From NCBI GenBank assembly GCA_034432155.1, contig DAOUCP010000113.1:40-64039 (forward strand): 64,000 bases of DNA, given 5' to 3'. The number at the start of each line of letters is the position of its first letter. Position 1 is the first letter of the stretch. The notes under the pieces are model-generated. The model searched no databases. It was not told the origin of the DNA and saw only the letters and a list, made by a program, of their open reading frames with translations. Position numbers and translations under genes: made by a program. Below, piece after piece: positions 4,840 to 37,899 of this stretch. The DNA is from Anaerolineae bacterium. Its GTDB lineage: Bacteria; Chloroflexota; Anaerolineae; Epilineales; Epilineaceae.

Positions 4840-5310
4840 TCACCCCACGCCCGCATACATCGCAAGGCCCATGGATCCAAGCAGCAGAATCGCAGTGGCC
4901 ACAGTGACAAGCCACAACCTTCGATTCATGCGAAACATCGGAATACCCATCAGAACGATCGAGCCAAAGAAGAGCACAAGATAAGGGACGAGAATGTCGT
5001 AGCGCATTGGAGACCGAAACTCGATCTGCAGAATGTCCTCTACAACGATCATGAACGCCACGAATGCGAGGAACATCGCCGGACCGATCCACTGTCGCCA
5101 GCCAGCGCGTGCGCGCACGAAGGCGACCATGGTCAGAGCTGCTGGGACGGCAAGCGCGATCACACCATAACCAAGAAGTTGATTGATCGCGCGGTCCCCG
5201 GTTAGCACCCGTGACAAGAACCCGGCCGACTGCAGCACATTGACCGCATTCACCACCCCCCACACGGTGAGCGCTGCCCACCACAGATTCCCACGCTTCG
5301 GAACATCCAT
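4840..5310 (-). CDS. Hypothetical membrane protein, about 5 TM helices, 156 aa
   Basis: GGAGG RBS before ATG 5310; alternating hydrophobic segments. Confidence 0.75.
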   Translation of the reverse strand: MDVPKRGNLWWAALTVWGVVNAVNVLQSAGFLSRVLTGDRAINQLLGYGVIALAVPAALTMVAFVRARAGWRQWIGPAMFLAFVAFMIVVEDILQIEFRSPMRYDILVPYLVLFFGSIVLMGIPMFRMNRRLWLVTVATAILLLGSMGLAMYAGVG

Positions 5311-5444
5311 ACGGTACCTCCCGACGGGCGCCGAGGCCCACACCGCTTCCTTGGGAGCGCCCCCTGCCCTACATTGCGCTCTTGCGCCGCCCCGACCCAG
5401 CGAAGCAGTCGGCTGCAAATGCCTGCCACCCGCGCGGCCGCAGT

Positions 5445-7215
5445 TCACCCTTCCATTCCCAGAATGCCAAGAATCTCTCCCGGTTGATGTGCCACCGCCC
5501 ACCGCCAGTGCCCAAAGCCGCCCTGCGCGTTCACGGCCTGTATCCACTCGTCCAGGTAGCGGCGCTTGGACTGGTCTTGCTGGGTATCCTTTCCCTTTGT
5601 TTCCAGGATCAGCATGTCGCCGTTGACGAGACGAGCCAAGAAATCACCCCGATACTTATGAACGATGCCATGGTGAAGATAGGAAATCTCGAAGCCAAGA
5701 TGGTCGTTTTTCACCCAGGCGGCCACCACCGGGCTTTCGTCCAGGACAAAGGCATCAGACGCCTCCCAAGTGCTGTCGTACACGCAGACATTGATGTGCG
5801 ACTTGTCCGTCCGCTCGCAGGGCTTGCCCGTGTACCAGGGCCGCATTTCACCGGTAGACCGGATGGGATGGTCGCGGTCAAAGACCGGCTCGAGGCGCTC
5901 CGTGTTCTCGCGACGCACCGCATGAAATACATGCTGGACGACCCGCGACATGTTGAGGGTGATGATCAGGCGACGGCGCAACGCATCCTGGGCGAAGAGC
6001 GGCGGGTTCACGCGGATGCGGTCCGAGGCGATGAACTGCTCGACGATGCGCACCAGCTGTGCCAGCAGCACCTCGGAGCTGCCCTGGCAGCCTTGTTTCA
6101 TCTGGTCGAAGACATCCCGCGCCGTCTCGAAGATGATGCGCTGGGTGCGGAACTCGTGCGCCAGACGTTCTAGTTCGATGCGGCTCACTTGAGTCACATC
6201 TGGCTTGCCTTCGAGCACCGGTGCGAGCTCCGCCACCTGAGCCGTCTGGGCGGCATCCAGCTCCAGAGGCGGAACGTTCGCCCATTCCATGCGGAGGAGC
6301 GGCTGAACGAGGTGTTCGATACGCACAACATTCGGCCACCGAATCGCAAAGCGCGCTTTGGCGGGATCCGGCGCAACGAGCGTCTTTGGCACTGCCGGGG
6401 GCGGTGGGCCACCGTCGGTATTCTCGTGCGGCAGGAAGGTGAACGGTACGCCAAAGATGTTCACGTATTCTGGCTCGAACAGGCCCGTTGCGGGATTGAC
6501 CTCATAGCAGGTGCGTCGCAAGCCGCGCCCAACTACCTGCTCACATAGCAACTGACTGGTGAAGGCCCGCAGTCCCGTGATGTGGGTGACGGTCTTGGCG
6601 TCCCGCCCTCGGAGAGCATCCCCACCGAGATGACATTCTGCATCTTTCCGCCAGGCTGGCCCGGTTTGCCGACGGTGTCTACCATGGTGCGGAGCAGTTC
6701 CGCTTGTTGGGTTTTGGTCAACTTCTGTTCGAGTGCCACTTCTTGGTCCGCTTCTGCTTCGTCTTCGTCCGGCCGGTGGCCATCCTGCAGCACTGGCGGA
6801 CGAACGCGCCGCCGTCGCTGGGGATCTCAATGCCGGTCCGCTCAGCGGATGGAGCCTCAGTGAGCCAGATGAGGGTTTCCACCGCTTCGAGCTGGCAGAA
6901 GAAGAAGCGGCGCCGGTCGAAATCCTCGGGGTCTTGCCAGTGCTCCAGCAGCCGTTTGGTTATGCTGGTCTCGCCCGGATAGCCAGCCTCGCGCCACCGC
7001 TTGACGCGCGCACGAATCTGATTGACCAGAGGAATCTCGACGAAGATGCCCGGATCATCGAAGGCTTGCGAACTCTCGGAGGCCACCACGTAGCCGGCCG
7101 GGCGGCGTCCCTCGACTAACTCAAACAGCCGCGTCGTCCGGTCGTAGCGCCAGTAGCGTCTCGGTTCTTCGTAGGGCGAGTTGACGATCAGACGGTCAAT
7201 GGTGGCGGTCGGCAT
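5445..7215 (-). pseudogene. res: Type III restriction endonuclease Res subunit (BPTD_3080-like), large internal deletion plus frameshift
   Basis: N-terminus LIVNSPYEEP..GRRPAGY..FFFCQLEAVET..MATG joins directly at ~6771, out of frame, to the EDEAE..KLTK.QQAELL..DTVGKPG..QNVISVGMLSEG segment; 1-nt loss in EG(W)DAKTVTHI at ~6604; C-terminal PD-(D/E)xK domain (Y.GDF..ILETKG) intact. Confidence 0.88.
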
Positions 7216-15661: not shown

Positions 15662-16336
15662 CTGAGCCGTCGGCCACCGACCGTCGTACCGCAACGCCGA
15701 AGCCGCCGAAGCACCGACCACCGCCCGCCGGCCCAGCGACACGCCGACCACGCCCCCGTCTGCGACGCAGACGGCAACAGGCCACAGGGCCGACGTTCCG
15801 CATCGAGCGGCCTGGTGGCTGTGCATCCCCCTGACGTGGCGCGATTACAGCCTCGGCCGCTAGGCTAGCAGGCGCTGGCGACGGTGCTTGATCCCAGGCA
15901 TTGCGGAACAACGCGCCGCGGCGGGTCCATTGCGCCTGGCTGCGTGCCTGCTGCCTCACGAAACGCGACGATCCGCTCCACAGCCCTACCGATGGGGTCC
16001 TATGCTCGTGGGAATTGCACGTGTCAGCTCGCCCCGTCACGCAGCGGCAGGCTACAGCCTGGGTCGGTCGTGATCCTGTGCTGCGCCACCTCCAGGCACC
16101 ACTGTTCAGCGCCGGGCAGCCGCCTGCACAGCTCGATGGTCCTCGACAGCTCCTGCGCTACCGGGGGGTCCGCGATGCCCAGACCCACGAGCTGTGCGAT
16201 CCCGCGGGAGACTGCCGCGCAGACAATGTGGGAGGCTCATTTCGGGCGCCACTGTCCCGCATCGCCATCCGAACGGCCGCCTTAGGCCGCGGAGGCCGCG
16301 GACGTCAGGCCGCGGGGAAGGGCCGCCCGAACAAGG

Positions 16337-16421
16337 TGGGGCGGCTGGGACTCGAACCCAGACGAGGGGTAGCCTCAGCGGAGTTTAAGTCCGCCGCGTC
16401 TGCCAGTTTCGCCACCGCCCC
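16337..16421 (-). tRNA. trnL: tRNA-Leu (anticodon UAA), CCA not encoded
   Basis: GGGGCGG acceptor stem, D-loop TGGCAGA, anticodon arm GCGGA-CTTAAAC-TCCGC, long variable arm, GGTTCGAGTCC T-loop. Confidence 0.97.
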
Positions 16422-28124: not shown

Positions 28125-28781
28125 ATGACCCAACTGCTCCTCATCCGTCACGCCCACAACGACTGGCTGAACGACCGGTTGGCGGGCTGGACGCCCGGGG
28201 TGGGTCTCAATGCCGAAGGCCACGCCGCAGCTCGGGCATTGGCCCAGCGGCTGGATCAGTATCCCATCGACGCCGTCTTTTCGAGCCCCCTGCAGCGCAC
28301 CCTCGAGACCGCGGCCTATCTCGCCGAGTCGCGGCACCTGACCATCCACGAGGAGCCGAACCTGGGGGAGGTGGATTGCGGCAGCTGGACGGGCCGCCGC
28401 CTGGAGGAGCTCCAGGCCGACCCATTGTGGGCTCATCTGCGCGTCTATCCGAGCGGCACCTGCCTGCCGAACGGGGAACACATCGCCGCGGTGCAACGTC
28501 GATCGGTGGCGGCGGTCGAGGCCATCGTCGCCGCCTGGCCCGAGGGAGTCGTGGCCATCGTTTCTCACGCCGACGTGATCAAGACGATCGTGGCCCACTA
28601 CGTCGGCATACCCCTGGACTTGTACCGTCGGTTGGAAATCGACCCGGCATCGCTGAGCGTGTTGCAGGTAACTGCCCAGGGTCCTCGACTGCTGCTCCTG
28701 AACGAGACGGGAGCTCTTCCCCCGCCACCCACCCCCAGCAGCCACAAGCCGGGAGCGGCTGGCAAACCCGCCACGCCCTGA
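28125..28781 (+). CDS. Histidine phosphatase, MSMEG_4193-like putative phosphomutase
   Basis: LLIRHA, LAGWTPGVGLN, SSPLQRTLETA, VSHADVIK. Confidence 0.88.
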   Translation: MTQLLLIRHAHNDWLNDRLAGWTPGVGLNAEGHAAARALAQRLDQYPIDAVFSSPLQRTLETAAYLAESRHLTIHEEPNLGEVDCGSWTGRRLEELQADPLWAHLRVYPSGTCLPNGEHIAAVQRRSVAAVEAIVAAWPEGVVAIVSHADVIKTIVAHYVGIPLDLYRRLEIDPASLSVLQVTAQGPRLLLLNETGALPPPPTPSSHKPGAAGKPATP

Positions 28782-28787
28782 GCGTCG

Positions 28788-29315
28788 ATGGCTGCCGAGT
28801 ACGATTTCGACCTAGACCCGGTGTCGTTCATCACCGTGGGCGCCGAGGGCCCGCCCGGTCACCGGACCTTCTACCTGCAGGCGGCTGCCGGGCAGGAAGT
28901 GCTGACGCTGACCATCGAGAAGGAGCAAGCCGCGGCCCTGGCGGAGAGCATCGAGCGCCTACTCGCCGCCTTGCAGCGCCACGATCCCGAATACGCCCGC
29001 CATGTCCAGCCGCTGCAGATGGACATGGCGCTCATTGAACCCCTGGATGCCAAGTTCCGGGTAGGCCAGATGGGCATCGGGGTTGACGAGGAGCGCCACG
29101 TCATCGTGCTGATCGCGCACGAGGGCCACGGCCAACCGTCGGCCATGCGAGCGCGATTTGTGGCTACCTACGAGCAGATGCTTACCATGGCCCGCCAGGC
29201 GGCCGCCGTGGTCGCCCAGGGCCGCCCGCTTTGCGACCTCTGCGGGGAGCCGATCGATCCGGACGGTCACTTCTGCGTTCGTCGGAACGGTCATAACGCC
29301 TGGCCACCCGCATAG
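28788..29315 (+). CDS. DUF3090 family protein
   Basis: ITVGAEGPPG.RTFYLQ, EKEQ..ALA, C.LCG.PIDP.GHFC.R.NGH. Confidence 0.9.
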   Translation: MAAEYDFDLDPVSFITVGAEGPPGHRTFYLQAAAGQEVLTLTIEKEQAAALAESIERLLAALQRHDPEYARHVQPLQMDMALIEPLDAKFRVGQMGIGVDEERHVIVLIAHEGHGQPSAMRARFVATYEQMLTMARQAAAVVAQGRPLCDLCGEPIDPDGHFCVRRNGHNAWPPA

Positions 29316-30242: not shown

Positions 30243-32294
30243 TCATGGCTCGCCTGGACATGGGATGTAGCGGGCCACCTCGCGGTAGATCCGCAGCAAC
30301 TCCTCCGAGCCCGGCGCCTCGTAGTACAGATCGGCGATGCCGCGCAGCAAGTCGCTGTCCACATCGCCACCCAAGCCAATGGTGACCACGGTGATGCCAG
30401 CATCCCTTGCCTGCCTGGCCGCGGCGGCCACGTCGTTGGGATCGCCAATCTGGCGACCGTCGGTCAAGAGCACGATGGCCCGGACCCGGCCGCTCTGTGG
30501 TGACCGCGTCAGCTCATCGTAGGCGGCGCGAAGACCGAGGTCGATGCGCGTGCCAACCGCTTGCCGACTCGGCAAGGCCCGCAGCGCCGCTGCGATCTGG
30601 CCGCGATCGCTCGTCAAGGATGTCTCGACGTGGGCGGCATTGTTGAAGCCCACGATCGCGACCCGATCGACGTCCTTGAGCTGATTCACGAATTCTTGCG
30701 CTGCCTCGATCGCCGCCTCCAGCTTGCTCTGCGTTTGTCCCGGCGTCTTTTCACTCATGCTGGTCGATGTGTCAATCGCCAAGGCAACGCTCAGAAGCTG
30801 CGCTTCTGGCACGCACTTCGTCGGCGCCGGTGTGGCCGTCGGTTCCGGCGGCCAATTGCGGAACAGGATCGGCAAGTACTTGGCCCGGGGGGCCGGCGTT
30901 TCGGTGGGCAGCGGCGTGGGCGTGTCGGTCGGAGTGGGCGATGCCGTTGGCGTGGCGGTGGGTGTTGCCGTTGGCGGCAACACCTCGATCTCTACCGGCG
31001 GGAACCAGCCCGAGCCGATCGCCGATCGGCTATCCACGTACTGAATCCCGGCGCTGACGCTGACCGGCCACAAACCTGCCGCCTGGGGCTGGACGCGGTA
31101 GGTGAGGGTTACGGGCAGGGTCGGCGGCTCGAACTTCCACTCCATCTGCTGCCCGGTCACCGTCACGTTCGGCGGCGTGATCGAGCCGGCATCCAGCTGC
31201 ATCGTATCGGTCAAGACATCCCGAACGAGGAGCGAAGCGATGGACACGGGCTCTCCCTTGGCCAGCTGCTTGGTGTAGGCATCGAGAAACGGCTTCATCG
31301 AGCCGCGCTCGCTGACATACGCCCCCTGGCTGGCCAGCTCGGAGAGCTTGCGGCGGTCGTAGTCCCGCACGCCGAAGCCGACGGTGAACACGTGGGTATC
31401 CTTGTCGACGCCCAGGTTGCGCATGTCCTTGGCGCAGAACTGGAAATCCGACAGGATGATGATCACTTTCGTGCGCGGGTCAGGACGAGCACCGGTGCCC
31501 TTCAGAACGCGAACCGCCTCGCGCATGCCGGTGTTGATCCGGGTGATGCTGCCACCGCGCAGGCGGTTGACGCCGGTCGACACTTTGTTACGTTCGCTCG
31601 ACAGGGCCACCGAGACCTGCACGCGCTCGTCGAAGGCCACCAAACCGACTCGCAGCCGGTCTGCTGCCATGTCGCGCTCGATGTTAAGGTCGCCGAGGAA
31701 ATCGCCAATCCACTTCTGAACATCCCGGATGCGATCGGCATCGCCGGCCGGCTCCAGCTCGTTGATGTCCGGCGTTGAGAAGACCGGTGGCATCGGCGTC
31801 GGCGTTGGTCGCCAGCCGGGTCGGCGGGTGGGCGTGGGCGACGGTTCATTCCCCCGCACCGGATTGCAGAAAGGCGGCTCGCCTTCTGGCGCCCCGCTGC
31901 CAGGCGTTGGTTCGTTCCCCGTCGGCGGCGTAGGCGTCGGCCGCTCACCTGTCGACGTCGGTTCGGGGCGGGTTGGAATCGTGGTCGGCAGACTGCCCTG
32001 CTTGTACTTGGTCATCGAGTTGGAGATGTCAGCCAGGAGCACCAGGTCGATGGGCCCACCCCAGGCAGCGCAGGTACCACTGACGACGAGGGTCACCTGC
32101 GAGCTGTCGCCCAGGGGAATCACTTCCGGGTCCACCCACTTCTGCAGCTCCGTCAGGCAACTGCTCGGCATGGCCGTCGCCGTTGGCCGGGCCTGCGCGG
32201 CCGTCGGGCTGCTCTCCGAAAGGGTGAACAACGCCACCACGACAACAAAGAGAGGGATGAGTGCAATCCAGAGCAATCTCAGCGGACGTACCAT
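30243..32294 (-). CDS. Secreted double-VWA domain protein (VWA - DUF11/Ig-like - PT linker - VWA), paralogue A
   Basis: GGAGGAG RBS; signal peptide; MIDAS DISNS and DTSTS; GTRID.GL and LLTDG; internal KYLPILFR. Confidence 0.9.
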   Translation of the reverse strand: MVRPLRLLWIALIPLFVVVVALFTLSESSPTAAQARPTATAMPSSCLTELQKWVDPEVIPLGDSSQVTLVVSGTCAAWGGPIDLVLLADISNSMTKYKQGSLPTTIPTRPEPTSTGERPTPTPPTGNEPTPGSGAPEGEPPFCNPVRGNEPSPTPTRRPGWRPTPTPMPPVFSTPDINELEPAGDADRIRDVQKWIGDFLGDLNIERDMAADRLRVGLVAFDERVQVSVALSSERNKVSTGVNRLRGGSITRINTGMREAVRVLKGTGARPDPRTKVIIILSDFQFCAKDMRNLGVDKDTHVFTVGFGVRDYDRRKLSELASQGAYVSERGSMKPFLDAYTKQLAKGEPVSIASLLVRDVLTDTMQLDAGSITPPNVTVTGQQMEWKFEPPTLPVTLTYRVQPQAAGLWPVSVSAGIQYVDSRSAIGSGWFPPVEIEVLPPTATPTATPTASPTPTDTPTPLPTETPAPRAKYLPILFRNWPPEPTATPAPTKCVPEAQLLSVALAIDTSTSMSEKTPGQTQSKLEAAIEAAQEFVNQLKDVDRVAIVGFNNAAHVETSLTSDRGQIAAALRALPSRQAVGTRIDLGLRAAYDELTRSPQSGRVRAIVLLTDGRQIGDPNDVAAAARQARDAGITVVTIGLGGDVDSDLLRGIADLYYEAPGSEELLRIYREVARYIPCPGEP

Positions 32295-32456
32295 ATTGCT
32301 GCTCCTCCGGTGAAACACCTGGGACTTGGATCCGCGCCCGTCGCGGCCGGTGTGCGATTCGATCATGAGAGTGGACGCACCTGCGGCCAGCGGGGACGCG
32401 GGCCTCATCTTACGATAACGCCGCGTCGCGCTCCAAGATAGACGGTGACAGCGTGA

Positions 32457-33761
32457 CTACGGCCTCTGACTCGGATTCCCCGCGAGTGCGGCGAGAAGAC
32501 GCCGCACCGCCCTGCCCCGGTGGCTGACAAAGTTCTTCTCGGCCATGGGCAGCTCGGCCATGGATACGTGACCACCGTAGCCGGCGTCCTCGACCAGGAA
32601 GACGGGATCGTAGCCGAAGCCGCCCTTCCCGCGCGGCGCCCAGGCGATTCGGCCTTCGACGGAACCTTGCGCGCACTCGGCATGGCCGTCCGGCCATGCG
32701 ATGGCCGTCGCCGACGTGTAGCGCGCCGTCCGCTTCTCCCAGGGCACATCGCGCATCCGCGCCAAGAGGCTGCGCCAGCGCTCGGCGTCGCTCCCCTGGA
32801 GCCAGCGCGCCGACTGCAAACCTGGCTGGCCGCCCAGGGCGTCGACCTCCAGCCCCGAGTCGTCGGCCAGCGCCGGCAGACCGCTCGCTTGGGCATAGGC
32901 CTTGGCCTTGGCCAGGGCATGCTCCCACCACGTCGTCCCCTCTTCCGCGACACGAAGCGCCAAGCCGAGATCGGAAGGCGTGCGGATGCGTTCCGCCAGC
33001 CCCTCGGCGAGAGCGGCCAACTCGGCCAGTTTTCCGGCGTTCGTGGTGGCAATCAGCAGTTCGGCCATCGGCAGCGGAAGGCGCGGCGCGGCAGGCAGTG
33101 CGCCCGTCAGCAACGTGGGCGCTGGCCGAGCGGCCGTTGGGGCCTCGTGGTAGAGACCGTGGCGCTCGATGTAGGAACGCACCGACTCCGCGACCTGGTA
33201 GCGAATCGGCCGGCCGTCGACCACCCGCTGGCGCAAATCCGTGCCGGAGATGCCGATGGGCGGCATGGCGACGACGCGCAGAGCACTCCGCAAGCCCGGG
33301 ATGACCGCCTCCAGGGTGACCAGATCAGGCGGTTCTCCGGGCCGGTTCAGGACCACCAGGCAGGCCAACTGGGGCAGGCGCTGCGGCTCGTGCCAAGTCG
33401 CGAGCTCGGCCAGAGAGTCGCTGCCCATCAGGAAGTGCAGCCTCGCCTGAGGATGCTCGTCGCGCAGCTGGGCGAGCATATCCACGGTGTAGTGGGGACC
33501 GGGCCGATCGACGTCGACCCGGCTAATGGCCAGACGCTCATTCCCGGCGATGGCCAAGGCCAGCATGGCAATGCGATGGTCGGACGTCGTCTTGGCCCTC
33601 GTGCGTTTGTGAGGCGGATCGGCGGCCGGTACGAACAGTACCGCCTCCAGAGCAAGCGCATGGAGTGCCTCAGTGGCCGCCACCAGGTGCCCCACGTGCA
33701 CCGGATCGAAGGTGCCACCGAAGACACCGATGTCGCCGGTCCAGGTGGGCTTCACCGGCAT
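32457..33761 (-). CDS. nadD-rdgB: Fused nicotinate-nucleotide adenylyltransferase (NadD) and RdgB/HAM1 non-canonical purine NTP pyrophosphatase
   Basis: GVFGGTFDPVHVGH..YTVD..LMGSD..ISGT..YQV (NadD); then, with no stop, LIATTNAGK..ADDSGLEVDALGGQPG..FGYDPVF..SHRGRA (RdgB). Confidence 0.9.
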   Translation of the reverse strand: MPVKPTWTGDIGVFGGTFDPVHVGHLVAATEALHALALEAVLFVPAADPPHKRTRAKTTSDHRIAMLALAIAGNERLAISRVDVDRPGPHYTVDMLAQLRDEHPQARLHFLMGSDSLAELATWHEPQRLPQLACLVVLNRPGEPPDLVTLEAVIPGLRSALRVVAMPPIGISGTDLRQRVVDGRPIRYQVAESVRSYIERHGLYHEAPTAARPAPTLLTGALPAAPRLPLPMAELLIATTNAGKLAELAALAEGLAERIRTPSDLGLALRVAEEGTTWWEHALAKAKAYAQASGLPALADDSGLEVDALGGQPGLQSARWLQGSDAERWRSLLARMRDVPWEKRTARYTSATAIAWPDGHAECAQGSVEGRIAWAPRGKGGFGYDPVFLVEDAGYGGHVSMAELPMAEKNFVSHRGRAVRRLLAALAGNPSQRP

Positions 33762-33795
33762 CGCCTCCGCCACCGGAGCCCGCGTCGCACGCCGG

Positions 33796-35812
<2,017 letters not shown>

Positions 35813-35838: not shown

Positions 35839-37899
35839 TCATGGACAGGGGATGAAGCGGGCGATGCGCCGGTACAAGTCCAGCAAGTCCTCGGCGCCAG
35901 GCGCCGGGAAGTAGTATTCCGGCAGGCTGGCCAGGCGCTTCAACAGCTCCTCGTCGACGTCGTCACCCAAGCCAATCGTCACCACGTTGATACCGGAGGC
36001 CCGAATCCGGTCACCGACGGCCACGACATGATCGTTGCCCGGTGGTCCGACTTGTCGACCGTCCGTCACCAGCACGATGGACCGGTTGTTCTCCGTCCGA
36101 TGCCGCGGGCCCACCAGCTCCGCCTCGGCCGCCTCCAAGCCCAGGTCGATGCGCGTGCCGGTCTTCTGGGTCTCGGGCAGCCGCCGCAACGCCGTCCGCA
36201 CTGCATCCTTGTCCGCCGTCAGGTGGGCCGCCGTCGTCGCCGTGCTGTTGAAACCGATCACCGCGACCTGGTCGTCTGCTTTCAGCAGATCGACGAGGGC
36301 GATGCTGGCCTCGATCGCCGCTTGCAGTTTGGCGAGTCGGCCACCCGGCGTCGGGTCGTTCATGCTGGTCGACGTGTCCACCAGGAGAGCCACGTCCACC
36401 GTCTGAACCTCCGGTACGCACTTGGTGGGTGCCGGCGTCGGCGTCAGCGTGGGCGTGACCGGCGGCCAGAGACGCAGCAGGTACGGCAGGTAGCGATCGA
36501 TCGGTCGCGGAGTGGCGGTCCAGGTTGGCGTCGGCGAGGGGGTTTCGGTGGGCGTGCTGGTGGGTGTGGCCGTGGCCGTTGGCGTGTGGGCAATGACCTC
36601 CACCCAGACTGGCGGGAAGAGGCCCCGGCCTACCAGCCCCTTCGAGTCGCTCCACAGCGCTTCCGCTTGCTTGCTGATGAGCTGCCGTCCCACTGCCAGT
36701 GGCTGAACCGCGAAGGTGAGCGTCGCCGGCACGTACGGCTCCGGCAACTGCCACTCCAGCACTTGCCCGCTGATGGTCACCGTGGGCGGGTTCACCGAGC
36801 CACCGATGAGACTCATGGTGTCCGTCAATTCGTCGCGAACGGTAAGGCCAGCGAAGAACACCGAGCTGGCCCGCGACAAGCGGTTCACATAGGCCTGCTG
36901 AATGGGCGTCATGGCATGCCGCTCGCTGACATAGGCTGCATCGGTCGCCAGCTGGTGCAACCTTGGTCGGTCGAAGTTGCGCACCCCGAAGCCCACCGCC
37001 AGCACGTGCACGCCCGGCTCGATGCGGAACCGCATGTCGGCATCGCAGAACTGGAAGTCCGACAGGATCATGAGGGCCTTGACCCGCTCGGTGTCGGGAC
37101 GGCTGCCCGTGCCCGACAACACCCGCAGCGCCTCGCGCAGACCGTTGTTGATGCGCGTGATGTCCCCGCCGCGGGCCCTGGTCACGCCATTCAGAACGCG
37201 ACTGGGCTCATTGGTGAGCGCTACCGTGTTGACCGGCCGCTGGTCAAACGCCACCACCCCGATGCGCAGCCGGTCGCTCTTCATGTCGCGCTCGATCTCC
37301 GGCAAGCCTAGGAAGTCGCTCACCCAACGTTCCACCTCCCGAATCTGGTCCTCGGTGCCCGATGGCTCCAGCTCCTCAATGCTGCGGGTGGGGATCGGCG
37401 CCGGTGTCGGCGTCCACCAATACCAGCGACGCGTTGGAGTTGGGGTGGCCCGCTCGGGATGGCAGAACGGCGGCTCGCCGCCCAGCCTGGGATCTTCGGT
37501 CGGCTGCGGCCCGGGGCCAGGTTCGCGGGTGGGCGTGCCAGGCGTCTCAGGCGGGCCGGGCCGCGTAGGCGTGGCTATCCCCGGGCCGAGGCCGCCCTTC
37601 GACATGGAGTTCGAGACATCGACCAGCAGCACCAGATCAATCGGCATGCCGCTGGCAGGACAATCGCCGGTGATCACCAATGTGACATCCACGTCCTTGC
37701 CCAGTTCTACTACCTCAGGGACGGCCCACTTCTGAAGGCCGGCGAGGCACTGGCTGGGGGCAGCGGAGGTGGCCGTGGGCGCAAGAGCAGGCGCACCGGC
37801 CAGGCGCGGCGATTCGGCGGCGGCCATGGCCAGCATGGCGGTCAGAAAGGCGAGAACGGGAAGGAGAGCAGTCCACAAACGAACGACGCGGCGCATCAT
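35839..37899 (-). CDS. Secreted double-VWA domain protein, paralogue B
   Basis: Signal peptide; DVSNS and DTSTS MIDAS motifs; same architecture as 30243-32294; internal RYLPYLLR. Confidence 0.9.
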   Translation of the reverse strand: MMRRVVRLWTALLPVLAFLTAMLAMAAAESPRLAGAPALAPTATSAAPSQCLAGLQKWAVPEVVELGKDVDVTLVITGDCPASGMPIDLVLLVDVSNSMSKGGLGPGIATPTRPGPPETPGTPTREPGPGPQPTEDPRLGGEPPFCHPERATPTPTRRWYWWTPTPAPIPTRSIEELEPSGTEDQIREVERWVSDFLGLPEIERDMKSDRLRIGVVAFDQRPVNTVALTNEPSRVLNGVTRARGGDITRINNGLREALRVLSGTGSRPDTERVKALMILSDFQFCDADMRFRIEPGVHVLAVGFGVRNFDRPRLHQLATDAAYVSERHAMTPIQQAYVNRLSRASSVFFAGLTVRDELTDTMSLIGGSVNPPTVTISGQVLEWQLPEPYVPATLTFAVQPLAVGRQLISKQAEALWSDSKGLVGRGLFPPVWVEVIAHTPTATATPTSTPTETPSPTPTWTATPRPIDRYLPYLLRLWPPVTPTLTPTPAPTKCVPEVQTVDVALLVDTSTSMNDPTPGGRLAKLQAAIEASIALVDLLKADDQVAVIGFNSTATTAAHLTADKDAVRTALRRLPETQKTGTRIDLGLEAAEAELVGPRHRTENNRSIVLVTDGRQVGPPGNDHVVAVGDRIRASGINVVTIGLGDDVDEELLKRLASLPEYYFPAPGAEDLLDLYRRIARFIPCP

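Follow-up and report, generated by a model that had tools for sequence, protein, structure and literature searches.

The fused reading frame

We analyzed a stretch of 64,000 nucleotides (67% G+C; hereafter the window) from contig DAOUCP010000113.1 of an uncultured Anaerolineae bacterium (phylum Chloroflexota, assembly GCA_034432155.1). On its minus strand, directly downstream of obg, the gene of the GTPase ObgE, the window carries nadD::rdgB, a gene that joins the nicotinate-nucleotide adenylyltransferase NadD and the non-canonical purine nucleoside triphosphate (NTP) pyrophosphatase RdgB (Ham1) in one protein. A single unbroken open reading frame (ORF), recognized by Pfam, NCBIfam and protein searches, occupies positions 32457-33761 of the minus strand and comprises 434 codons followed by a stop codon at 32457-32459. 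An earlier note on this DNA had given the same coordinates and had placed both domains in one frame. The ORF was confirmed and its strand, left unstated at the time, is minus; the 434 codons are free of internal stops and each of the two domains is matched by Pfam.

In terms of translation initiation, a Shine-Dalgarno-like GGAGG is located at 33764-33768 (minus strand), 8 nt from a GTG codon at 33755 and only 2 nt from the first ATG at 33761. On account of this spacing the true start is probably GTG 33755, which yields a protein of 432 amino acids (aa), the same length as database entry P0001. The stop codon of obg (33796-35070, minus strand) precedes the ATG of the fusion by 34 nt. A longer ORF of 482 aa from TTG 33905 was considered and rejected, as it runs into the end of obg and both the homologues and the Shine-Dalgarno-like sequence favor 33761 or 33755. 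A scan of the operon surroundings for promoters and terminators gave 0 promoter-like sites, and the terminator-like sites did not exceed the shuffled background.

Two intact enzyme domains

The NadD domain covers aa 10-206 (33144-33734, minus strand). Pfam CTP_transf_like matches aa 13-179 (E 1e-20), and over aa 10-206 both NadD equivalogs score above their curated cut-offs (NF000840, 196.5 vs 150 bits; TIGR00482, 175.5 vs 112.45 bits). The characteristic motifs are GGTFDPVHVGH (aa 15-25), PPHK (aa 49-52), GSD...W123 and ISGTDLR (aa 171-177), within which G15, G16, F18, D19, P20, H22, G24, H25, S172 and R177 do not vary among 13 fused sequences. Superposition of this half of the AlphaFold model on the structures 3E27, 5DEO and 1KAQ gave target-normalized template modeling (TM) scores of 0.92-0.94 at a root-mean-square deviation of about 2 Å. 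Taken together, the N-terminal half appears to be an ordinary nicotinic acid mononucleotide (NaMN) adenylyltransferase and would catalyze the reaction of this family, in which NaMN and ATP are converted to nicotinic acid adenine dinucleotide (NaAD) and pyrophosphate (PPi).

The RdgB/Ham1 domain follows at aa 232-427 (32481-33068, minus strand), as defined by Pfam, an alignment with E. coli 1k7k and a structure match to 2q16. Ham1p_like reaches 179.4 bits (gathering score 22.5) over aa 235-424 (model positions 1-185 of 186, E 9e-53), while the NCBIfam equivalogs fall just under their cut-offs (TIGR00042, 141.7 vs 145.35; NF011397, 190.4 vs 234), as expected for a divergent phylum. Alignment with 1k7k places the active-site residues at N241, K244, E273, K285, D300/D301, F382-P386 and S413-R415, which correspond to N10, K13, E41, K53, D68/D69, FGYDP and SHR of the E. 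coli enzyme in a numbering counted from that alignment. Across 14 sequences these positions do not vary or hardly do so, with S413 and D300 conserved to at least 90%. The target-normalized TM-score of this half of the model against 2q16 is 0.90-0.91. Judged by these features, the C-terminal half is presumably an ordinary RdgB; enzymes of this type hydrolyze inosine triphosphate (ITP), xanthosine triphosphate (XTP) or deoxy-ITP (dITP) to the nucleoside monophosphate and PPi.

The earlier note had described the catalytic signatures of both domains as intact, and this holds beyond the window. HVGH (aa 22-25), ADDSG (aa 299-303, including the key stretch D300-D301-S302-G303), FGYDP (aa 382-386) and SHR (aa 413-415) are all present and kept across 13 NadD-RdgB proteins; the three RdgB signatures are also found in P0014, a protein with the reverse domain order. 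As a separate feature, a 4-residue insertion precedes the conserved (A)EL at aa 394-407 (approximately 32541-32582, minus strand; EDAGYGGHVSMAEL vs PSEGK----TAAEL in E. coli). It is common to the whole clade of fused and split relatives, in which a Trp at aa 320 is likewise invariant.

Conservation of the fusion

A search across 5.8 billion proteins, with relatives grouped as 90%-identity clusters, revealed 12 further fused clusters (P0002-P0013) at 47-70% identity over 94-97% of the query, all of them with both Pfam domains. They are drawn from NCBI, JGI, ENA and Logan assemblies and thus from four independent sources. The two halves diverge in parallel, with NadD/RdgB identities of 75/71% in the related locus L001, 47/53% in L083 and 45/57% in L084; the same reading frame spans both domains in these three loci and in L086. 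The latter, a metagenome-assembled genome (MAG) labeled Caldilineae (GCA_020634625.1), contains a continuous NadD-RdgB ORF of 408 aa at 5274-6500. Its stored gene call comprises only a 218-aa RdgB product (5844-6500), so that the NadD half has probably been left unannotated in the public record. Regarding taxonomic placement, the Obg protein of the window is closest to named MAG proteins of Caldilineae, Anaerolineae and Ardenticatenales (60-63% identity), and Chloroflexota are also the source of the nearest unfused genes for NadD and RdgB. A scan of GTDB genomes with the fusion alignment returned generic NadD or RdgB motif matches and no fused Chloroflexota among the matches listed; these matches pointed to the rdgB-yhbY-nadD cluster of Clostridia treated below.

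An obvious concern with any gene fusion in a draft assembly is that a lost stop codon or an indel at the junction has joined two genes in this contig only. The existence of the split relatives L087 and L088, described below, adds to this concern, as one single-base indel would interconvert the two states. It is countered by the 12 other clusters from independent sources, by the continuous ORF of the Caldilineae MAG and by a frame that is kept although linker lengths differ. The possibility of a private read-through, which the earlier note had asked to be checked, is refuted by the nearest relatives: those at 70, 62, 61 and 55% identity are all fused and form a clade with the window at 92% bootstrap support. 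Chance is no concern either: the matches of the two halves are highly significant, and independent assemblies show the same architecture. A sequencing artefact is hence very unlikely on comparative grounds, and we give next to no weight to a junction error confined to this contig.

One candidate for a distant member was rejected. P0123 (434 aa, from a JGI metagenome) had been suggested as a NadD-RdgB fusion by its length and two matched stretches and is actually a tandem RdgB-RdgB protein. Its first RdgB copy lacks several canonical motifs (e.g., DESF for DDSG), suggesting that this half has degenerated into a regulatory or pseudo-enzyme domain.

Linker and probable single-chain expression

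Between the two domains lies an Ala/Pro-rich linker of aa 207-231 (33069-33143, minus strand), in agreement with the earlier note, which had located it near 33070-33150. It is defined by the AlphaFold confidence values, the alignment and the split relatives, and is predicted to be disordered. In the AlphaFold2 model both domains are confident, with a predicted local distance difference test (pLDDT) value of about 90; aa 207-228 remain below a pLDDT of 50 and the predicted TM-score (pTM) of the model is 0.52, for which reason no defined interdomain orientation is predicted. Among relatives the linker cannot be aligned; its length varies between about 7 residues (P0009, P0010) and about 55 (P0004, P0005), with the frame always kept.

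The linker is followed by Met232 (33066-33068, minus strand), which occupies the same position as the rdgB starts of L087 and L088 and would be a relic of an ancestral rdgB start. This opens an alternative in which the two domains are made or used separately, either by internal initiation at Met232 or by proteolysis of the linker: the codon lies exactly at the ancestral start position, and a disordered linker is open to proteases. The remaining evidence points the other way. As already observed in the earlier note, no Shine-Dalgarno-like sequence precedes Met232, and none was found 5' of TTG217, the single further in-frame start within the linker. P0002-P0004 carry Leu or Ile in place of Met232, the stretch from the end of NadD to the RdgB domain of L001 is devoid of in-frame start codons, and P0009 and P0010 are nearly linker-free. 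Finally, coupling by termination and reinitiation is impossible without an upstream stop codon. Separate production or use of the domains is therefore improbable. With a frame that is unbroken and conserved in independent relatives, and no separate start for RdgB found, we infer that the fusion is expressed as one polypeptide of about 47 kDa. A chain with both NadD and RdgB domains was not found in the PDB.

Split relatives and the origin of the fusion

Relatives of Obg led to two loci, L087 and L088, where nadD and rdgB stand behind obg as separate genes that overlap by 4 nt at the stop and start codons (ATGA in L087, ...cgATGAgc...; GTGA in L088, ...aaGTGAca...). Such a 4-nt stop/start overlap is the classic layout of translational coupling. 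Relative to the first strand of the RdgB domain, Met232 of the fusion takes the position of the ATG of the L087 rdgB (MSARLLVATTN) and of the GTG of the L088 rdgB (VTAELVAATAN), and the fused linker corresponds to the low-complexity C-terminal tail of NadD in both loci. A third arrangement is seen in L089, where one extra ORF stands between nadD and rdgB, again with 4-nt overlaps, and whose nadD is present in three sequencing runs. The extra ORF itself (L089 1425-2084) encodes an Ala-rich protein of 219 aa whose N-terminus resembles that of a lipoprotein and which has no Pfam match; the ORF overlaps its neighbor by 4 nt on each side.

In order to relate both states, a neighbor-joining (NJ) tree of concatenated NadD and RdgB was calculated from 404 columns with 500 bootstraps and a Clostridial outgroup. 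Neither all fused forms (0%, 0/500) nor all split forms (0%) were monophyletic. The split L087 grouped with the fused P0012 and P0013 at 86%, and the window with P0002-P0005, all fused, at 92%. Separate trees of the NadD and RdgB domains were congruent. Fused and split forms are thus interspersed, which implies that the covalent link was gained or lost at least twice in this lineage. Judging from these gene orders, what is kept is adjacency and co-translation, while the fused or split state switches. No such linkage is seen for P0015, the closest stand-alone rdgB (60% identity), or for nadD and rdgB of other Chloroflexota.

These comparisons can be combined into a likely course of events. In the ancestor, rdgB would have been translationally coupled to nadD by a 4-nt overlap behind obg. 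The stop codon of nadD may then have been lost through a small indel in the gene's tail, placing nadD in frame with the downstream rdgB, with Met232 as the old rdgB start. From then on a single chain would be translated from the obg operon, its flexible and non-conserved linker serving as a floppy tether with each domain acting alone. Under this scenario the fusion would secure 1:1 co-expression and nothing beyond; the conserved trait of the lineage would be that nadD and rdgB are tightly co-expressed behind obg, with the covalent joining near-neutral.

RdgB fusions in Clostridia and other partners

The combination of both enzymes is not restricted to Chloroflexota. Proteins with the reversed order RdgB-NadD were found in Clostridia/Oscillospiraceae (P0014, P0126, P0132, P0281, P0282, P0284, P0285), together with RdgB-NadD-YqeK triple fusions of 517-587 aa (P0165, P0290, and P0162 with its cluster-mate P0280). 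The last of these (MDR0858720.1) is named only "YqeK" by NCBI. Since their NadD half is about 29% identical to the NadD of the window and groups with unfused Clostridial NadD, the Clostridial fusions represent an independent origin. By gene order, they derive from an rdgB-yhbY-nadD arrangement: unfused Clostridial relatives (L026, L055) show the order (ftsY or rph)-rdgB-yhbY-nadD-yqeK, with YhbY confirmed by Pfam, and the fused locus reads ftsY-rdgB::nadD-yqeK-lytR-rsfS-leuS.

RdgB itself proved to be a frequent fusion partner. About 27 of about 85 listed proteins related to the RdgB domain of the window carry a different partner domain according to Pfam. By their Pfam accessions, these partners include GNAT, TrmD, RNase III, MoaC, MoaA, RNase PH, MurI and a QueG-like domain as well as guanylate kinase (Gmk), Uma2, a histidine phosphatase, a formyltransferase and TetR. 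In Clostridia, where yhbY is a neighbor gene of rdgB, fusions of RdgB to the CRM-domain RNA-binding protein YhbY account for at least 15 clusters (e.g., P0288, P0289, P0294) and are much commoner than RdgB-NadD. In the same manner, rdgB of L031 abuts a MoaA-like ORF, the very pairing that is fused in the MoaA-RdgB protein P0057. Evidently, RdgB merges with whichever gene adjoins it.

Interpretation of the fusion

Taking the split relatives, the tree and the promiscuity of RdgB together, we consider it somewhat probable that the fusion is a near-neutral variant of a translationally coupled housekeeping gene pair. Several observations weigh against it. The NJ trees comprise 404 columns and some of their nodes are weak (48% and 16%), and the split state of L087 and L088 is taken from MAG assemblies. 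The subclade supported at 92% keeps its frame across linkers of 17-55 residues, which hints at some selection to stay fused. Moreover, RdgB-NadD and RdgB-NadD-YqeK arose independently in Clostridia, and nadD and rdgB are operon neighbors in two phyla; by this distribution, the recurrence of the pair exceeds what purely accidental pairing would predict. In addition, a specific quality-control role has been published for a hydrolase fused to NadD (PMC9426524).

A functional link through substrate channeling between the two active sites was rejected. The reactions of NadD and RdgB have no common intermediate, the linker is disordered and variable, the pTM is low, and the genes pass readily between the fused and the split form.

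The earlier note had proposed another function, namely that RdgB beside or on NadD removes ITP and XTP (and dITP) and thereby pre-empts hypoxanthine and xanthine analogues of NaAD and NAD that would inhibit NAD-dependent enzymes. In such a division of labor RdgB would complement YqeK, which hydrolyzes wrong NadD products afterwards. Support comes from the independent pairing in two phyla, with either domain leading, from the triple proteins P0165, P0290 and P0280 and from the translationally coupled nadD-rdgB neighbors in Chloroflexota. More generally, NadD is joined to or clustered with a nucleotide-sanitizing hydrolase in several lineages, the pattern expected of damage control of the NadD-YqeK type. 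Biochemical precedents exist as well: mammalian nicotinamide mononucleotide adenylyltransferases (NMNATs) make nicotinamide hypoxanthine dinucleotide (NHD) from ITP (PMC6739475), and one mycoplasma NadD is highly promiscuous for NTPs, with its fused YqeK proofreading the products and partly complementing mutT (PMC9426524). By analogy with these NMNAT and NadD-YqeK cases the idea is plausible.

On the other hand, a soluble hydrolase lowers ITP cell-wide, so that a covalent link adds nothing without channeling, and the variable, disordered linker together with the repeated switching between states argues against a fixed geometry. RdgB joins unrelated neighbors such as YhbY, GNAT, TrmD and MoaA just as readily, a housekeeping cluster that was already in place accounts for the Clostridial fusions, and the unlinked genes of other Chloroflexota, with P0015 as the closest stand-alone rdgB, do not follow the proposed association. 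The NadD of B. subtilis strongly prefers ATP (PMC9426524), and the term ITP was not found in that study. We therefore regard the proposed sanitation of NTPs for NadD, and likewise the complementary role to YqeK, as possible but doubtful. If damage control is nevertheless real, its benefit would come from co-expression and not from the covalent link. The part of the proposal that treated the fusion itself as the functional point is not supported, given split relatives in the same clade, a state that has switched, a linker of about 7-55 residues and an RdgB that is promiscuous in its partners.

Genomic neighborhood

Within the operon, the obg product is identified by the Pfam families GTP1_OBG, MMR_HSR1 and DUF1967 and corresponds to database entry P0400 (424 aa). 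Directly upstream of obg, and overlapping its extended ORF, lies an ORF of 241 aa (35087-35812, minus strand) with no Pfam match. Similar ORFs without annotation, 205-232 aa long, lie ahead of obg in L001, L083, L084, L086 and L088, for which reason it can be regarded as a conserved operon member; the order of this ORF, obg and the fusion is common to L001, L083, L084 and L086.

On the other side, a gene for a VWA-domain protein of 721 aa (30243-32408, minus strand; Pfam VWA) begins 48 nt past the stop codon of the fusion on the same strand. It is syntenic in L001 and considered a neighbor only. Together with a paralogous VWA-domain protein of 686 aa (35839-37899, minus strand) it flanks the obg-nadD::rdgB operon; both paralogues contain long Pro/Thr-rich spacers, and the same flanking arrangement is found in L001. 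A gene pair for a His_Phos_1 histidine phosphatase and a DUF3090 protein (28125-29315, plus strand) is likewise syntenic with L001. The sole RNA gene found in the 64-kb window is a tRNA-Leu(TAA) at 16335-16421 (minus strand).

Relation to known systems

The closest known counterpart is the NadD-YqeK protein of Firmicutes and mycoplasmas (Haas et al. 2022, mBio, PMC9426524), which likewise combines NadD and a nucleotide-cleaning hydrolase on one chain or in one operon. Both associations were found through comparative genomics, and the same Clostridial locus gives rise to RdgB-NadD-YqeK. They differ in the partner, which is an ITPase-fold Ham1 domain in NadD-RdgB and an HD-domain hydrolase in NadD-YqeK, and in the point of action: unlike YqeK, which acts on dinucleotide products, RdgB would act on the substrates ITP and XTP before NadD. 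YqeK has also been assigned as a diadenosine tetraphosphate (Ap4A) hydrolase (Minazzato et al. 2020, as cited in PMC9426524).

Other RdgB fusions resemble NadD-RdgB insofar as RdgB is joined to a neighbor. Examples among the matches are Rph-RdgB (P0031, P0083, P0323), MurI-RdgB (P0062), GNAT-RdgB (at least 9 clusters) and the RdgB-YhbY group described above. Unlike these partners, NadD alone was found here joined to RdgB in both orders and in two phyla. The Clostridial RdgB-NadD(-YqeK) proteins, which exist as database entries only (e.g., P0132, P0284, P0165, P0280), share the two catalytic domains and the housekeeping cluster, in reversed order. NadD and RdgB also occur as stand-alone, separate proteins (B. 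anthracis 3E27 and M. abscessus 5DEO for NadD; E. coli 1K7K and 2Q16 for RdgB), with which the fusion shares folds and motifs at 35-41% identity; its RdgB differs by the 4 residues inserted ahead of the MAEL helix, a conserved feature of the fused clade. A related architecture is NadM-Nudix (NCBIfam NF003788), likewise a pyridine-nucleotide adenylyltransferase and a nucleotide pyrophosphatase on one chain. It differs in belonging to the NadM subfamily, whose model reaches only 15.7 bits in the fusion of the window, and in its Nudix hydrolase fold; the hydrolase half of NadM-Nudix acts on ADP-ribose.

The earlier note did not recall a description of a NadD-RdgB fusion. A search of the open-access literature returned no paper describing such a protein, and NadD and RdgB are both absent from a systematic survey of fusions (PMC4921024). 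The architecture is nonetheless present in databases, where the automatic annotation of JGI already names several of these proteins as bifunctional.

Implications

The NadD-RdgB fusion does not amount to a new system; it is a curiosity of modest weight and will hardly surprise a specialist. Both enzymes are textbook housekeeping proteins, and no new chemistry is expected from the gene. As a caution, a Rosetta-stone fusion with a partner as promiscuous as RdgB is weak evidence of functional coupling. From a practical point of view, at least one public record (L086) annotates the RdgB half alone of a fused ORF. For genome evolution, the lineage offers a clean natural case of genes with 4-nt overlaps flipping to and from fusions.

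The value of the finding thus lies in comparative genomics: nadD and rdgB occur together as overlapping, fused and reverse-fused genes in two distant phyla, beside the known NadD-YqeK association. This raises the question of whether bacterial NadD misuses ITP or XTP, and whether RdgB guards the NAD pool besides DNA and RNA. Only tentatively, and with less rather than more likelihood, can the association be read as a second, pre-emptive arm of NAD quality control, in which RdgB would clear ITP and XTP and YqeK would remove wrong dinucleotides. If this were true, deaminated-purine NAD analogues would be a real and selected-against form of metabolite damage in bacteria.

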